Part shown: in pieces, positions 14,662 to 24,659 of the stretch
Position numbering within the stretch: position 1 is the first letter of the stretch
How the letters are laid out: every line of letters starts with the position of its first letter
NCBI GenBank assembly: GCA_964464605.1
Contig: CAYXJN010000007.1
Location: 186,001 to 218,252 of the forward strand
Length of the DNA: 32,252 nucleotides
From: an uncultured Ignavibacteriales bacterium
GTDB taxonomy: Bacteria > Zixibacteria > MSB-5A5 > GN15 > FEB-12
Reading direction: 5' to 3'
The notes under the pieces: generated by a model
What the model was told of the DNA's origin: nothing
Database searches by the model: none
What the model saw: only the letters and a program-made list of their open reading frames with translations
Position numbers and translations under genes: made by a program

Positions 14662-14907
14662 CTGGATCAGATTCTGCAAATTATCGGCGCGTTGTTGATA
14701 CTCGCCGGATATGCCCTCGGTCAGTTCAAAGTTCTCAAAACTGATTCACTTACCTATTTGCTGTTGAACTTTGTTGGCTCAATAATTCTGACTCTGTTAG
14801 CCTGGCTTACGAATCAGTGGGGATTCTTTCTTTTAGAAGGGGTCTGGGCGCTTATCTCACTTTGGGGGCTTTTCAAATTCTTTCAGACAAAAAATAATCG
14901 GGTTTAG
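14662..14907 (+). CDS. small membrane protein, CBU_0592-like family (probable CTG start)
   Basis: Three hydrophobic helices with YLLLNFVGS and LLEGVWALIS. The frame extends upstream of TTG 14692 as CTG-DQILQIIGA, with AAGGAG at 14651-14656. Confidence 0.7.
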   Translation: MDQILQIIGALLILAGYALGQFKVLKTDSLTYLLLNFVGSIILTLLAWLTNQWGFFLLEGVWALISLWGLFKFFQTKNNRV

Positions 14908-14955
14908 TTGTTACGCCAAACCCGATCGGAGCAGAAGACGTGACAAAAGGTAGTT

Positions 14956-15681
14956 TTATTTACTGTTCGTCGTTACTTGCCCACCCTGCGATAATCCGAC
15001 GCCGTTTTTCGTAGCGGCACGGTAGATGGAAAAATGCTCCATTTCGATATGGAAGTTCCCGTCGATATCTTTGAGAATAGTTCCCTGCATATCCCATTTT
15101 CCCGTGTCAGGATTAAAGTACAACCAGAAAATTTCATCCGCTGGAGAGCCATCCGATTTTTTAAACAACGATCCGGAAAGAATTAATTCTGCTTTTTGGG
15201 AAAACTGCAAACCATGCGGACTGAAATGATACTCGCGAACATCCAACCCCATCACGGCAAGTGAATAAGAAGTAATTTGAATAGTTGTATCGCTCTGAAT
15301 AGAGCCGGGTCTGACTTCGAAACTACCGACAACTTCATCCCCGTTATGCAACATAATTGAACCGCCGCTGTGTCTGATAATCCGCTTCTCATCGACAACT
15401 GAGGGAAACGTTGGAGGGAGATCGACGACTATTGTCGAGGTATCAAGACCGACCCCTTTTCCTTTGACCGGAATAGCGATTCCACTGCTATCTATAACCG
15501 GCGGCATGAGCGATTGTACGACCACAATCTGCTCGATTTCATCTTCTTTTTGAGCTTGAACTATTCGGGAAATATCCCGCGAGCAGCTGACAAAGTGAAT
15601 ACCGACCACGTTAACGCCCAGACAAAATACTATCCAGGTCGTTGCGTTTACGATGCTGTTTTTCTTTAGTCCGAAGATCAT
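14956..15681 (-). CDS. putative lipoprotein with ZU5-like domain and C-terminal HFS motif (paralog 2)
   Basis: Lipobox-like FVSC; GGSI, FEVRPGSI..DTTIQI, FSPHGLQF, WLYFNPDTGKWD and HFSIY. Confidence 0.7.
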   Translation of the reverse strand: MIFGLKKNSIVNATTWIVFCLGVNVVGIHFVSCSRDISRIVQAQKEDEIEQIVVVQSLMPPVIDSSGIAIPVKGKGVGLDTSTIVVDLPPTFPSVVDEKRIIRHSGGSIMLHNGDEVVGSFEVRPGSIQSDTTIQITSYSLAVMGLDVREYHFSPHGLQFSQKAELILSGSLFKKSDGSPADEIFWLYFNPDTGKWDMQGTILKDIDGNFHIEMEHFSIYRAATKNGVGLSQGGQVTTNSK

Positions 15682-15696
15682 ATGCTTTCTTTCTTT

Positions 15697-15728
15697 TATC
15701 GGGTTCGGCGATTACGTCGAACCCGATA
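15697..15728. other. strong intergenic hairpin between the two ZU5-like genes
   Basis: TATCGGGTTCGGCG-atta-CGTCGAACCCGATA, a 14-bp stem with one imperfect pair. It is not followed by a U tract on either strand. Confidence 0.7.
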
Positions 15729-15751
15729 GTATCAGGGCATGATGAAAGGAC

Positions 15752-16495
15752 CTATTTAGCGTTCGTTTGCGGTTTGACCTGTCCACCCTGTGAAATACCG
15801 ATACCACTCTTCGTGGCGGCGCGATAGGTTGAGAAGTGCGAAACCGGAACGTAGAAATTTCCGTCTATCGCTCGCGGAACAAGGGTATTCAACTCCCATT
15901 TTCCGTTGAGCGGATTCAAGTATAACCAAAGCAATTCGGTCGGGAGTATTCCGTTGTTATCGGCAAATAATGAAGCCGGCAATTTCACTGTTGCCGAGCG
16001 ATTGAATTTCAAGCCATCCGGGCTGAATTGATATTCACGAATCGCCAGACCTAACACTTCAAGTGAAAATGAACGGACAGTGATCGTCGTATCTTTCGGT
16101 ATTGCGTTCGCCGGTACTTGGAATTCACCGACTACTTCACCACCACAACGCAGATAAATGGTACCGCCACTATTTTTCGTAACACGGGCGCTATCGACGC
16201 CACATGGCGGAAGCAACAAATTATGAACGCTGTCGACGACTGAACCAAGCCCGGTTTTGATTCCGTTGACAATGCCGCCGATAAGCGGAGGTGCGGAGGT
16301 TACGGCGGTTGCATCCGTCACCTGCGGAATCGAATTATTCGCGTCAATAATCTGCGTGATTTGCTGATCCTCAGCGGAACCGATCATCCGGTTCGGATCA
16401 CGGGAACAGCTTATCTGCAGTATTACCGCTAACAATAGACTGGTTAACAGAACCCCCCAGGTGAACACGCTCAAATGTCGCTTTTTCGGGTTCAT
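15752..16495 (-). CDS. putative lipoprotein with ZU5-like domain and C-terminal HFS motif (paralog 1)
   Basis: Start MNPKKRH (16495) after AAGGAG/GCAGGT. Lipobox-like QISC; GGTI, FQVPANAI..DTTITV, FSPDGLKF, WLYLNPLNGKWE and HFSTY. The longer ORF-track start would overlap the promoter. Confidence 0.72.
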   Translation of the reverse strand: MNPKKRHLSVFTWGVLLTSLLLAVILQISCSRDPNRMIGSAEDQQITQIIDANNSIPQVTDATAVTSAPPLIGGIVNGIKTGLGSVVDSVHNLLLPPCGVDSARVTKNSGGTIYLRCGGEVVGEFQVPANAIPKDTTITVRSFSLEVLGLAIREYQFSPDGLKFNRSATVKLPASLFADNNGILPTELLWLYLNPLNGKWELNTLVPRAIDGNFYVPVSHFSTYRAATKSGIGISQGGQVKPQTNAK

Positions 16496-16549
16496 CGTAC
16501 CTGCTCGCTCCTTATATGGCTGTTTCTTGCTCATACTGAAACAGTAGGT

Positions 16550-16567
16550 ATGCAACTGCTTTGCCGG
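16550..16567 (-). promoter_or_regulatory. sigma54 (-24/-12) promoter
   Basis: Minus strand CCGGCAAAGCAGTTGCAT = GG-N10-GC, against the consensus TGGCAC-N5-TTGCW. Confidence 0.7.
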
Positions 16568-16571
16568 GTGG

Positions 16572-16584
16572 TAACTCATTGATA
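16572..16584 (-). promoter_or_regulatory. IHF-binding consensus site
   Basis: TATCAATGAGTTA matches WATCAANNNNTTR exactly, immediately upstream of the -24 element. Confidence 0.6.
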
Positions 16585-16690
16585 TTGCTACGCTTTTAGA
16601 AGAACTGTGGCCATTTTTCGCGATTTTTTGTGGGAGTTATCCAATACCTGATAGACTTTTGGTCAGGGTGGCGATGTCACCCTTTATCGT

Positions 16691-16720
16691 TTGACATTTA
16701 CTAAGCAGAGTCATTATGCT
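16691..16720 (+). promoter_or_regulatory. sigma70-type promoter
   Basis: TTGACA-18 nt-TATGCT, 9 nt before GTG 16730. Confidence 0.55.
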
Positions 16721-16729
16721 GTTTTCATT

Positions 16730-17263
16730 GTGGGCAAAAAAAGTTCGACTAAATCAGATGGCGGCAGTGCAGTACCGTGGAAGTCGATCGGATGGATCGG
16801 GTTCGCGATAGTTTTCATTATACTTTTTCGCGGTGAAATCGGAATCTTGATAACGAAGATCGGGGAGTTTTCATTCAAAGGACCCGGTGTCGAATTTGGA
16901 TTCAAAGTAAAAAGCCTCGAAGCCGCCGCCAAAGATATCCCGATTACTATTCCCGAAGATTCAGTGTTACATATTCCTGACAGCGTTTCGCAAACAATCC
17001 TCGCGCTGAAAGATTCAATCCCGCCGGAAACATTGGCCACCCGCCCTGACCTGCTTTTGAAAATCGGCGTGGTGGAACATGTTAGGGGAGATTCGGCAGA
17101 GGCGATGACATTTTTCCAAGCGGCAGAACTTCAGGCCGACAAAACCGGCGATAGAACGATCAAACAAGCCGCGTCTGCCAATATCCAAACGGCACGCATG
17201 CAGGCAGGTGTCAGTCCCCAACTCAGAATCGGCAGTGAGTTGATACGAAGGGATAGTTCGTAA
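16730..17263 (+). CDS. single-pass membrane protein with C-terminal TPR-like helices
   Basis: TM segment WIGFAIVFIILF and TPR-like LLKIGVVEHVRGDSAEAMTFFQAA. The ORF-track TTG start at 16691 coincides with a -35 box, so GTG 16730 is preferred. Confidence 0.6.
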   Translation: MGKKSSTKSDGGSAVPWKSIGWIGFAIVFIILFRGEIGILITKIGEFSFKGPGVEFGFKVKSLEAAAKDIPITIPEDSVLHIPDSVSQTILALKDSIPPETLATRPDLLLKIGVVEHVRGDSAEAMTFFQAAELQADKTGDRTIKQAASANIQTARMQAGVSPQLRIGSELIRRDSS

Positions 17264-17501: not shown

Positions 17502-17870
17502 TCAAAGTATCCATTCTAACAAATAGTTACAAATGTATGTGAAGGCAAAAATACCAATAGCAATTAGACTATAACGGAATAACTTTTTCTTCAAAGCTAT
17601 TACAAAAAAGAATAGTGAAAAAAGAAAAATAGAACCTTGAATTAGTGCCGTTGTAGCATATGTACCTGCTGTAGCATAGTGCCATCCTCCATAACCCATC
17701 ATTGCTTCTGAGCCGAAATAATAACTATCTATCGTCAATGGATCGGCAATCACACCGATCTTAAATCCTTCATATATGAGTATGAATGATAGAAGTAAAG
17801 AAAGGGTCAACCCAACTGTAGTTACCGGCAAAAATAGGACTTTTGAAATTGTCGACCATCTTGTTTTCAT
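17502..17870 (-). CDS. hypothetical membrane protein (3 TM), AT-rich
   Basis: 122-aa ORF with three hydrophobic segments and a loop YYFGSEAMMGYGGWHY. Confidence 0.65.
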   Translation of the reverse strand: MKTRWSTISKVLFLPVTTVGLTLSLLLSFILIYEGFKIGVIADPLTIDSYYFGSEAMMGYGGWHYATAGTYATTALIQGSIFLFSLFFFVIALKKKLFRYSLIAIGIFAFTYICNYLLEWIL

Positions 17871-20966: not shown

Positions 20967-23439
20967 TTACTCTTTCGCCCCTGCCTGCTCCAATAGCCTG
21001 ATAATGTCACCCCTGTTCTTTTCTCTCGCTATCATCAAAGCCGTGATGCCGTCGAACTTACCGGTCATCTTAATAGTGACATCCGCTCCGGCATCCAAAA
21101 GCAACTGCACAATGTCAGTAGCCCCTTCATAAATGGCAAACATGAGCGGCGTTTGGTTATAGTCGGCAGTCTCATTGACATAGGCACCACGCTTAAGAAG
21201 CGATTTTACGACTGCACTCCGTTTTGCCCCGGCAGCATACATAAGCGGTGAGCGGGAAAAAACATCATCTTTTTGATTCGGATCAGCCCCTTTGGTCAGC
21301 AACATCTCTACGATATCGACATGACCGGCATACGAAGCTGCTATCAATGCGGTCACGCCAGTATCATTGTCAGCTGATAAATCAATACGGTTCTTAAGCA
21401 GCGTTTGTACTTTCTTCATATCCCCTTTTCCGGCTGCTTTAATCAATGCCTGCGCTTCCTCCGGAATCATGACAGTGCTGTCATAGTAGGACTTGCCGGC
21501 TTGCGCGCCGGTTTTTTTCAACAGCTCAATGACATCTTTATACTGGAAATCCTGAGCGATACTTAGGGCTGTTGCCCCGCTCATTTCGCCGATCATTGTA
21601 ATACTCGGGTCTGCACCTGCATCTAAGAGTATCTTAGCCAGATCTTTTGAGCCGACCGCCGCCGCCCACATGAGTGGAGTCTGCTTATAGGAACTGACCG
21701 CATTAACATCAGCGCCGTTTTTCAGCAGCACTTTCACGACATCCGGCTTATTTGCACCAACAGCATACATCAATGCCGTCATACTCAGATCCGTCGTGCG
21801 AAAATCGATTTTAGCACCTGCTTTGATCAGTTTTTCTACTGTCCCGGGATGACCGTTGACCGACGCTAACACCAGTGCGGTGAGCCCATCGTCATTACGG
21901 GCATTGATATTGAGTTCTTTTTTTTGACGCGGATTCGAGGGCGCCATTGTCACCCGAACGAGCAGCGTTGCGCATAATCGCTTCTGCCTCCTCGTTAATC
22001 GGATTACCGCCATCATCAACGGGTTCGGCAGGTATTGCAGCGGGTGCCTGCGCGGTAGTTGGCGGTGGTGTTGTTTCGACTGGGGCAGATTTCGCTACGA
22101 GCGAGCCTGCTTTCCCTCCCGCTTCACTGATCGCAGCAAGCGCTTCATCATATCCGCTGGTGCCGGCATAATTGTATGCCGTCATGCCTTGTTTATCTTC
22201 ATGGTTCGGATCGGCACCGGCAGTAAGTAACAGCCTGATAACATCCGCACGACCATACAACGAGGCAACGATAAGCGGCGTCATACCACCGGTATCCGGA
22301 AGGTTTGGATCTGCTTTTGCAGTAAGCAGTTCTTTGATAACTTCCATATGGCCGTTTGCAGATGCAAAATGCAAGGCAGTCCATCCGCCACGTGTTTGTA
22401 CGTTCACGTTCGCGCCTTTTGCCAAGAACAGGTTAACACAGGCTAACTGCCCAGTTAAGGCTGAAGTGATAAGCGGGGTACTGTTATCTGATGCCGGGCT
22501 ATCGACATTCTGTCCGAGCAGCAAACAGTAAAGTATGGCTGAAGTATCACCGATAGTAGCCGCGGGATAAAGCAGATTCGCTTTGTAGTTCAGAATTGCA
22601 CCGGTTGGATACGCAAGTGCATCGACAATCCCATAATAACCGGCCTGACTAGCATAGTCTGATGCACTCAGCCCGGCGATGTCCCGCAGACTTGGCTCAG
22701 CGCCATAATCCAAAAGAGCCGCGACAACATCCGAAAAGCCCTTTGACGCCGCGTATATCAGAGCAGTGGTGTTGTCCGGGCCGAGCCGGTTCGGATCGGC
22801 ACCCGCTTTGAGCAACAGCAAAACTGAGGATAAATCACCGGCAGCGGATGAATATATCAGCGTGGTAAATCCGTTAAATGCAGTCGCATTCGGGTTGGCT
22901 CCTAATGCCAATAACGCCTGCACCGCTTTTACCTTGCCAAATGCCGCTGCTTGTATGAGTACTGTTTCCCCGGAATCGTTTGTTTGCTCGATTTGGTAGC
23001 CGGCCTGGGCAAGCAGTTTTAATATCTCCCCATTTCCCCGTTGTGCCGCGTCAAACGCAGCCATTCCACCGAACATATTTTTCGCGTTCGGGTTCGCTCC
23101 AGCAGCCAGTAAAGCTTTGACCATCTGAGCATTGCTAATACGGGTAGCCAAGATAAGCGCATTATCCCCGGCGATGTTGGCTCCCTCCACATTGGCTCCG
23201 GCGGCCAAAAGAAATTTGACCGTGCGAAGATTATTGGTAGAAATAGCGACCATAAGTGGTGTTTCAGTGATATCATTCGCGGCGCTTGGATCCGCTCCTT
23301 TTTGCAAGAACTCGCGTAGTTTAGTCGTGTCACCACCGCTAAAGCGTATGGCGTCAAAAAACTCCTTTTTCGTATCCTGCGCAAAAGTCAGAATTGGAAA
23401 CAGAAAAATAATGAGCCCACTGAGTATTCGCTTTGTCAT
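20967..23439 (-). pseudogene. secreted ankyrin-repeat protein split by a +1 frameshift in an A8 run (823 aa if restored)
   Basis: Two overlapping ANK ORFs (21895-23439 and 20967-22019). Removing one A at 21918-21925 joins ...AARSGDNGALESASKK to ELNINARNDDGLTAL, giving an intact repeat. Signal peptide at the N-terminus. Confidence 0.8.
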
Positions 23440-23555: not shown

Positions 23556-24659
23556 CTAATTCCCGGCGGGCATTTTCTTATTCTTCTTCAGGTATTTCAA
23601 GAAGGAGTCCATGCTTTGTGATTCGGCAAACTTGCGAATGCGACGGAACCCCTCGCCGTACAAAAAGTCCGTATCGGCTTCAGCCGATTGTCGAATATAC
23701 TCAGCCTCTTTTGAAGTGAAATCATTCATAACAAGCCATCCGATATAGCTGATACTACCGGTATGAAGCATCTGCTCTGCGTTCTTTTTGCCAAACCGAA
23801 ACAGCCAAAGACTCATCATGGACTGGGATAAAATGTACGCGGCTTCGGCTCTTGGAAGACCGTACAGCAAATACACGTCTACCTGCCGGTCGACCGGAAT
23901 AAGACCAAACACAACCCGGCTCTCTTTAAACGCAGCATATCCCTTGAAACGAAGGCTATTTGAGTTTCCGATTTCGGCCAACTCGCCTCGGTAGACCAGG
24001 TGGTTGTCGGCTGCATCGAATGGGACATCGATACCTTTGTTCAACAGCGATTGACGAATTTCCTGAACCAGTTGATTCATTTGTTCGAGGGTGGTGATTG
24101 CTGTTTTCCCGCAAAGTCCGCATATCCAGCGACCGTCGAAGTACATTTGGCCGCTATCAGAGGCGGCACAAACAAATCTCTGGCATGACACACATTCCGG
24201 CACGTGTCCGCGATGTGACAAATGATATTGATTTCCCCAGTAATCCGTGATGTATTGTCCTTCGATAATTTCACGACAGACCGTGCAGTGAAGCGCGACC
24301 TTATTGTTGTAGCAGGAATCATGGTAGCTCTTCCCTTCAAATGTAACATACCTGCTATCAATTATAGTACTGCATGCGGCACATCTGGGGCCAAAGAGTT
24401 CGAAATAACAGGTCTGGTCATAGTGTTTATCCTTCTCTTTAAAATACTTCTCACCCCCAATCGATTTGTCGCAATTGGCACAGCGAAAATGGGTGGCACA
24501 GTAATAGTTCCCGTCTACCTCAAAAAACCGAGTCGTCTGCACCGGTTTCTTGCAATAACCGCAGATTTTTTCAGCGGCTAAAAGCGTATCAACGGAAATG
24601 AGGCAGAAGACAGAAAGGAACAAAAGAAAAGATAATCGCCGTACGATGCGTGTAGTCAC
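23556..24659 (-). CDS. secreted LIM-domain + DA1-like protein with degenerate metallopeptidase site
   Basis: Signal peptide, tandem CxxC...H/C zinc fingers, and DA1 hallmarks LLYGLPR and YGEGFR. The HEMMH position reads QSMMS. Confidence 0.8.
   Translation of the reverse strand: MTTRIVRRLSFLLFLSVFCLISVDTLLAAEKICGYCKKPVQTTRFFEVDGNYYCATHFRCANCDKSIGGEKYFKEKDKHYDQTCYFELFGPRCAACSTIIDSRYVTFEGKSYHDSCYNNKVALHCTVCREIIEGQYITDYWGNQYHLSHRGHVPECVSCQRFVCAASDSGQMYFDGRWICGLCGKTAITTLEQMNQLVQEIRQSLLNKGIDVPFDAADNHLVYRGELAEIGNSNSLRFKGYAAFKESRVVFGLIPVDRQVDVYLLYGLPRAEAAYILSQSMMSLWLFRFGKKNAEQMLHTGSISYIGWLVMNDFTSKEAEYIRQSAEADTDFLYGEGFRRIRKFAESQSMDSFLKYLKKNKKMPAGN

Follow-up and report, generated by a model that had tools for sequence, protein, structure and literature searches.

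Bacterial ZU5 domains were predicted to be autopeptidases in a study that united ZU5, GPS, and the Nup98 domain (Zhang et al. 2012, PMC3482391). In the MAIN domain of Bacillus subtilis YfkN, Edman degradation placed the cut between F and S of an HFS motif; cleavage was lost in S1346A and restored by Thr, and the fragments co-purified and parted only with sodium dodecyl sulfate (SDS) or heat (Brogan and Rudner, 10.64898/2026.05.12.724683). What the fragment beyond the cut itself does is a question that these authors leave open (10.64898/2026.05.12.724683). Here, we describe two neighboring genes, P0001 and P0002, that encode small predicted lipoproteins with an HFS motif of this kind and a short C-terminal tail ending in or near GGQ. 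They lie in a window of 32,252 nucleotides (the whole stretch of DNA analyzed) on contig CAYXJN010000007.1 of an uncultured Ignavibacteriales bacterium. We report their gene structure, the fold of their products, the position of HFS, the conservation and disorder of the tail, and the distribution of the family. On balance, we think it somewhat more probable than not that these are lipoproteins with a ZU5/GAIN-B sandwich that cuts itself at the F|S bond and leaves a docked fragment displaying the GGQ motif.

Self-cleaving domains of the GAIN/ZU5 type have only recently been shown in bacteria, where they release big surface enzymes. The lipoproteins described here reduce this system to its minimum, namely, a lipid anchor, a cutting domain, and a short peptide.

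Protein layout, fold, and position of HFS

Both genes are on the minus strand, P0001 at 14956..15681 (241 aa) and P0002 at 15752..16495 (247 aa), with the stop codons included in these coordinates. The longest open reading frame (ORF) of P0002 reaches 16579; the start at 16495 (MNPKK...) is preferred because it yields a typical signal peptide and agrees with the closest homologue, P0003. Read from its N-terminus, P0002 comprises a predicted signal peptide, the lipobox-type Cys30, a helix, a disordered linker, the ZU5 domain, HFS, and the GGQ tail, and its paralogue P0001 has the same layout, with 43% identity overall (BLASTP E 5e-63).

In both proteins, a positive N-region and a hydrophobic helix are followed by [VI]-S-C-S-R-D. 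The S-C-S-R-D of P0001 (15574..15588, minus strand) belongs to a lipobox-type F-V-S-C with Cys33, as placed by the family alignment, whereas that of P0002 (16397..16411, minus strand) has an atypical Q as its -3 residue ahead of the predicted acylation site. A lipobox-like Cys had been proposed in the original prediction, a reading of this DNA made from the sequence alone, and the Cys is indeed conserved across the family, following a small residue in every alignment row that retains its N-terminus; both proteins are therefore predicted to be lipidated at this position. After the domain there is no transmembrane segment, LPXTG, or SLH in either protein, just the tail of 24–26 aa, and library scans of both proteins gave no further Pfam or NCBIfam domain.

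Direct scans say little about the domain itself: Pfam gave no match to P0001 or P0002 at E<=10, and NCBIfam nothing usable. AlphaFold2 models are confident (pLDDT 88–98) for residues 95–226 of P0001 (15004..15399, minus strand) and 99–230 of P0002 (15806..16201, minus strand; model strands E99 to E228, pLDDT 91–98), and the model superimposes on solved ZU5 domains, with ankyrin, ZO-1, and UNC5b as the closest structures. The aligned range extends to residue 225–226, and so the strand after HFS is included. In both models the His closes the penultimate strand, Phe-Ser forms a turn, and I/T-Y-R-A-A-T makes up the last strand. The triad is H216-F217-S218 in P0001 (15028..15036, minus strand), in the turn between strands E209-216 and E219-224, and H220-F221-S222 in P0002 (15830..15838, minus strand), between E213-220 and E223-228; each is a predicted F|S self-cleavage site. 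The models support a ZU5 fold with the HFS triad ahead of the last strand.

The relationship can also be followed through sequence, one step removed. PF00791 (Pfam ZU5) is found at E<=0.01 in 6 of 124 small family members, and it scores above its cut-off, within the matched region, in 14 of the 24 longer proteins matched by the family profile, SLH-anchored proteins included. The longer relatives of one ZU5-bearing match include SLH, RHS/SpvB-type, and GLUG proteins, and profile A2 matches the ZO-1 ZU5 domain with an E of 7.8e-4. These matches are consistent with an indirect, transitive sequence relationship of the P0001/P0002 domain to ZU5. The ZU5-like domain of the original prediction is thus backed by the fold match to solved ZU5 structures and by transitive sequence evidence, and in the models HFS sits where it was said to sit, at the self-cleavage position of ZU5, GAIN, and MAIN domains.

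Three other leads came to nothing. DUF7468 was dropped as sub-threshold (E 0.037, with 14.7 bits where the cut-off is 27), Kelch matches of the C-terminal profile to solved structures were spurious and due to a repeated YNPxTxxW word, and Nup98 matches at the HFS region were non-significant (E 0.21–1.5).

Conservation of the tail

After HF, the two proteins continue as SIYRAATKNGVGLSQGGQV and STYRAATKSGIGISQGGQV, which are identical at 15 of 19 positions. On these points the earlier description was exact throughout: two paralogues, S-C-S-R-D in each, HFS at the two positions given above, and this degree of identity. Its claim that the tail is more conserved than the rest also stands, with identity of 77% for HFS plus tail (20/26), 45% for the domain (53/118), and 35% for the N-terminal part (32/91).

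What follows HF was taken to be a payload of 24–26 aa, and it is true that only such a piece is present. Its first ~7 residues (S-I-Y-R-A-A-T), however, are the last beta-strand of the domain, and only 11–19 residues are appended and disordered. Residues 225–241 of P0001 and 229–247 of P0002 are modeled as coil, with pLDDT 55–65, and predicted to be disordered. Within these stretches lie G-L-S-Q-G-G-Q of P0001 (residues 229–235; 14977..14997, minus strand) and G-I-S-Q-G-G-Q of P0002 (residues 233–239; 15779..15799, minus strand).

Gene conversion or recent copying can be ruled out as the source of the likeness between the two tails, because, of the 20 residues that agree between HFS and the C-terminus, 13 are encoded by different codons; the corresponding count in the domain is 27 of 51, so that the proportion is no lower in the tail. 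In a tree built from the domain only, P0001 groups with P0005 and P0002 with P0003 (98 and 97 in the Shimodaira–Hasegawa-like approximate likelihood ratio test, SH-aLRT). P0003 and P0005 are each found on one 2,115-base contig, and if this is one shared contig, the grouping fits a tandem pair in another organism and a duplication older than the split.

A variant strain from sludge or rhizosphere has 97.7% identity across the lipoprotein region. Codons 98–247 of P0002 carry 17 synonymous and 0 nonsynonymous changes, with 5 and 0 in the tail and 3 and 0 in the motif, whereas codons 1–97 carry 5 nonsynonymous changes; the stop codon of P0002 has changed from TAG to TGA.

Conservation of SQGGQ beyond the pair had been set beforehand as a refutation test, and it extends to 26 clusters at 25–30% identity. 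About that number of representative clusters have G-[LI]-S-Q-G-G-Q at or close to the C-terminus, either straight after HFSxY[RVF] or past a 7-residue insert as in P0001 and P0002. In their alignment (mean column identity 25%), S231, G234, and Q235 do not vary, while the columns of Q232 and G233 reach at least 90%. Further genomes contain the tail variants GLGSGGQ, MSPGGQ, SLGGQ, and SASGQ, one protein ends in SPGGE, and several GGQ members have 4–14 extra residues beyond GGQ. In some of the variants the canonical last strand is intact (HFSKYGVS, HFSKWAVSED), with the motif placed behind it; the GGQ tail is therefore an appendage to the domain rather than a diverged last strand.

On the domain-only tree, one clade (SH-aLRT 92) has 26 rows, and all but one of them carry the tail; the exception, P0008, breaks off inside the motif. 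Other rows with xGGQ fall in two or three further places among HFSKYAIS-type proteins. With one tree row (P0100) mislabeled by the tail pattern, gain and loss of the tail require a minimum of 6 changes, of which well-supported branches force at least 2. Repeated gain of the tail and its repeated loss would both be a sign of selection acting on the GGQ motif.

Family size and distribution

A word-indexed search of 5.8 billion protein clusters returned only three other close relatives, all with HFSxYRAxTxxGxGxSQGGQ. When that alignment was used for a hidden Markov model (HMM) search of 1.84 billion representatives, there were 193 matches at E<=1e-3, 34 of them at E<=1e-10. Most of these are proteins of 180–210 aa that carry both a signal peptide and [LF]-x-G-C-[SG], and most relatives stop 5–7 residues past HFS, typically as HFSKY[AG]IS[DE].

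HF[ST] is present in 150 of 153 collected proteins (147 HFS, 3 HFT), an invariance that is partly ascertainment because the search profile includes the motif; by pattern it is absent from P0072, P0107, and P0111, and in P0132 it lies outside the profile-matched stretch. Aligning the 124 small members leaves only five invariant columns, P155, F160, H216, F217, and S218, and column identity averages 13%.

In the phylum of the window genome, 157 of 285 genomes have a family match, often as tandem arrays of up to six genes, and a profile search finds just these two copies in the window genome. A locus search of genome contigs with one of the alignments gave no confirmed relative, and a DNA-pattern search for HFSxYxGxSQGGQ matched only 3 contigs. 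There is also an enzyme-bearing form of the family: in P0154 (532 aa), a peptidase M23 domain (PF01551) accompanies a region that the lipoprotein-family profile matches at E 1.3e-12. Comparison of protein clusters yielded look-alike clusters of hypothetical proteins of ~200 aa, in one of which 38% of the members have ZU5; we note this as a lead only.

Proposed mechanism

In the mechanism that we propose, both proteins would be exported and held by an N-terminal lipid anchor, from which a helix and a disordered linker of ~60 aa would lead to one beta-sandwich of the ZU5/GAIN-B type. The invariant His-Phe-Ser would lie in a tight turn ahead of the final strand, where the Ser would attack the Phe-Ser bond, and an N-to-O acyl shift followed by hydrolysis would split the chain at F217|S218 or F221|S222. 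The C-terminal fragment of 24–26 aa would remain docked through its beta-strand S-x-Y-R-A-A-T and show its flexible tail, with the G-[LI]-S-Q-G-G-Q core acting as a selected short linear motif for some partner. Unfolding or pulling could free the docked, pre-cut strand.

The same HFS motif at the same structural position as in cleaving homologues makes self-cleavage of P0001 at F217|S218 and of P0002 at F221|S222 likely. Because the fragments stay bound in the precedent, and because the first seven residues form a strand of the sandwich, we read the tail as a displayed motif, with nothing leaving spontaneously; by the same precedent the C-terminal fragments of P0001 and P0002 should be docked, and the GGQ tail would be a recognition motif. 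The original prediction went further, to free peptide release or a tethered-ligand system, and this part is not supported: in the homologues tested the fragments stay paired, and the loci examined have no receptor-like gene next to the GGQ type.

Several points weigh against our reading. The closest solved ZU5 domains, those of ankyrin, ZO-1, and UNC5b, act in binding and do not cleave, while PF00791 is absent from the scans of P0001 and P0002 and nothing in the window genome exceeds its cut-off, though Pfam ZU5 is likewise without a match in the B. subtilis control genome. We infer cleavage in the lipoprotein family from homologous domains, and the equation of its domain with MAIN rests on the motif, the fold, and shared architectures (SLH, RHS), as Pfam ZU5 is silent in B. 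subtilis. The collecting profile contains HFS, and its invariance is to that extent ascertained. The layout is the reverse of that of MAIN proteins, since both a releasable ectodomain and an anchor at the C-terminus are missing. No partner of the tail was found among the neighbors of 17 loci and in the window, and the 17 loci have no operon partner or receptor-like gene in common, with synteny only within genera. A complex prediction for the P0001 domain with the P0002 domain scored 0.00 in two runs made without controls and counts neither way.

The first of these points leads to an alternative that we consider fairly unlikely, that is, a ZU5 binding module that does not cleave, in which HFS is kept for structure or binding and the uncut chain serves, in the periplasm or at the surface, as an adaptor extended at its C-terminus. 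Besides the kinship with non-cleaving structures, it would spare most relatives the shedding of 5–7 residues without obvious purpose. However, the non-cleaving animal ZU5 domains are not known to have the H-F-S triad, and the presence of HF[ST] in nearly all of the homologues, exactly at the site of the cleaving relatives, is hard to attribute to the fold alone. The bacterial HFS domains that were tested did cleave (10.64898/2026.05.12.724683).

Gene neighborhoods and alternative roles of the tail

Neighborhoods of SQGG-tailed proteins were also to be inspected according to the original prediction, and across the 17 loci they revealed no common partner. An xGGQ tail is present at 16 of these loci and absent from the remaining one, L060. 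Pfam scans covered 39 of their 68 flanking ORFs, with short ORFs and duplicates of syntenic loci omitted, and four window ORFs were scanned separately. The neighbors are unrelated housekeeping genes (ATP synthase epsilon, L13, GNAT, SurA, serpin, and UvrC). In the window, P0001 and P0002 are accompanied by Dus, DUF520, small membrane ORFs, and GroEL, none of which has a homologue next to any other GGQ gene examined, and there is no TPR-containing signaling gene beside the pair.

Relatives without GGQ present a different picture. In 11 of 21 loci, the gene immediately upstream, in the same orientation, encodes a TPR protein (the scan of these sister-group loci took in 25 of 47 ORFs). Five fully read loci, from five genera, contain a three-part module composed of genes for a cNMP-binding-PAS-histidine kinase (~510 aa), a Guanylate_cyc-AAA_16-TPR protein (~1,330–1,365 aa), and one to six HFS/ZU5 lipoproteins; these are L066:1212-12382, L067:479-7161, L068:15-6829, L069:75-6840, and L060:7207-13969. 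The module may be a cyclic-nucleotide signaling unit with the lipoprotein as ligand source or output. In the RRNPP quorum sensing of Gram-positive bacteria, TPR receptors for short C-terminal peptides are the rule.

The TPR linkage of the sister group gives a peptide-signal reading some footing for the family as a whole, that is, a self-maturing precursor from which a diffusible fragment of 10–26 aa (S-x-Y-R...G-L-S-Q-G-G-Q) departs and acts on a receptor. It draws on the lipoprotein genes without GGQ that directly follow TPR genes, and on the five loci in which such genes come after those of the kinase and the cyclase. For P0001 and P0002 we regard it as distinctly unlikely. The window genome, G017, and G190 have GGQ-type genes only and no cyclase-TPR orthologue, which argues that the GGQ branch works through something else; in G194 and G077, the orthologue adjoins the member without GGQ and not the GGQ member, and in G059 it is in pieces. 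No neighbor is common to the 17 loci beyond close relatives, and gene adjacency is silent on which product is the ligand. The fragments of the homologues tested were bound until denatured (10.64898/2026.05.12.724683).

A broader version takes in the whole family. In it, HFS lipoproteins would be widespread self-maturing peptide precursors of outer-membrane bacteria: ZU5 would pre-cut the peptide, unfolding or force would free it, the peptides of one branch would go to TPR receptors in the cytoplasm with cyclic-nucleotide synthesis or breakdown as their activity, and the GGQ branch would have a longer peptide (S-x-Y-R...G-L-S-Q-G-G-Q) for another receptor or an envelope target. We give this version little credence. 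If true, bacteria would have in such a self-maturing precursor their own equivalent of the tethered agonist known from adhesion G protein-coupled receptors. The cyclase-TPR linkage of the sister genes is a concrete starting point for tracing what may be a new pathway of peptide sensing in little-studied phyla of sludge and sediment.

Very improbable, in our view, is a GGQ tail that serves as a tag for covalent attachment or sorting, for example as a Gln substrate of a transglutaminase-type enzyme, so that membrane, ZU5 domain, and envelope would be joined by a breakable tether in a miniature MAIN layout. MAIN proteins are always anchored after the domain (10.64898/2026.05.12.724683). The tail would suit such a role in being flexible, rich in Gly and Gln, and usually the end of the protein, and the window genome encodes Transglut_core proteins (4 matches, 3 above cut-off). 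Transglut_core is also matched in 10 of 14 control genomes, however, and its presence therefore means little; no transglutaminase-type enzyme is linked to the genes at the loci examined, no known sorting signal fits, and the idea leans on the substrate preferences of such enzymes. The members with 4–14 residues after GGQ also speak against it. Pup-like tags end in a C-terminal GGQ or GGE, but this kind of tag is ruled out, as the protein is exported and PF03136 (Pup ligase/deamidase) has no match in the 100%-complete genome, whereas a control genome matched.

Further features of the window

An intrinsic-terminator-like hairpin, with a 12-bp stem and then a T run, is located at 14896..14927 (minus strand), 29 nt past the stop of P0001, as called by a consensus scan only. 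Since it comes after P0001, the two genes probably form one transcription unit closed by this hairpin. A second hairpin, with a perfect 10-bp stem but no T run, occupies 15698..15727 (minus strand) in the intergenic spacer of 70 nt; it was read from the sequence and not called a terminator in the consensus scan. The two hairpins share the stem words ATCGGGTT/AACCCGAT, and in the variant strain a change at 15704 turns one pair of the spacer stem into G-U. The stretch 14900-16650 is near-identical in contigs from 20 runs of 7 studies (bioreactor, activated sludge, aquaculture, sludge, wastewater, and rhizosphere), although 10 of the 20 runs may be the source of the assembly itself. Of the 24 runs listed for it, none is an RNA data set.

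Between the lipoprotein pair and groEL, the ORFs at 16691-17263 (plus strand, 190 aa) and 17502-17870 (minus strand, 122 aa) encode small membrane proteins without a Pfam family. The former is divergent from P0002, with a promoter-like site at its start, and neither recurs beside other GGQ genes. Farther along, at 20970-23439 and 23559-24659, there are adjacent ankyrin-repeat proteins (350 and 514 aa) adjoining a protein of 367 aa that combines a LIM domain with a DA1-like region. Ankyrin-repeat, LIM, and DA1-like domains are known mainly from eukaryotes.

Comparison with known systems

Our preferred reading, a self-cut domain with a docked GGQ motif, invites comparison with several described groups of proteins. 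MAIN proteins such as YfkN average 158 kDa and consist of a signal peptide, ectodomains, MAIN, and a C-terminal wall anchor (10.64898/2026.05.12.724683). P0001 and P0002, by contrast, have their predicted lipid anchor at the N-terminus, no ectodomain, and only the short tail after the domain. MAIN is defined by its authors through a PSI-BLAST relationship to the YfkN MAIN domain, and lipoproteins have 0 occurrences in the main text of the preprint (10.64898/2026.05.12.724683). Two word-indexed searches for longer relatives yielded SLH, RHS, GLUG, and peptidase M23 proteins but no YfkN-like protein, which is weak evidence.

The original prediction did not recognize the arrangement as described. 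For the cleavage, this needs correction, as bacterial HFS self-cleavage was predicted in 2012 (PMC3482391) and demonstrated in 2026 (10.64898/2026.05.12.724683); for the minimal lipoprotein form and the GGQ tail it stands, neither having been found in the literature searched, although the preprint's list of ~15,000 MAIN proteins might include such forms.

The bacterial ZU5 autopeptidases of polymorphic toxins and of large surface proteins fall into one superfamily with the domain described here, and the lipoprotein profile reaches ZU5-bearing SLH-anchored and RHS/SpvB-type proteins. There, the domain is part of very large proteins with a proposed role in the release of filaments or toxins (PMC3482391), whereas in P0001 and P0002 it stands alone, with no large toxin or filament payload beside it in 241 and 247 aa.

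Animal ZU5 domains (PF00791) are autoproteolytic in PIDD and in the FIIND of NLRP1 and CARD8, and non-cleaving in ankyrin, UNC5, and ZO-1. Unlike P0001 and P0002, these are proteins of cytoplasmic signaling with large C-terminal parts (UPA, death domain, or CARD). The C-terminal domain of Nup98 is likewise cut at HF|S, and a groove holds the strand that follows; it differs in belonging to a eukaryotic nuclear pore protein. In the exported pro-peptides of Phr/RRNPP systems, the active part is the last few residues, cut out by separate proteases and with no folded self-cleaving domain. The likeness to them lies in the TPR genes that adjoin the non-GGQ relatives, and the difference in that no TPR gene is linked to the pair in the window.

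Against this background, the GGQ tail stands out as a motif that is sharply delimited and under selection, and for which no reader is known. In a protein of this layout, if cleavage occurs, only the peptide can change, and the family therefore offers a clean test of the post-cut fragment's own function. P0001 and P0002 thus represent a minimal domain of the ZU5/MAIN type, predicted to be lipid-anchored and joined to a conserved C-terminal GGQ motif, in which the domain type is already known and the tail is apparently new to description.

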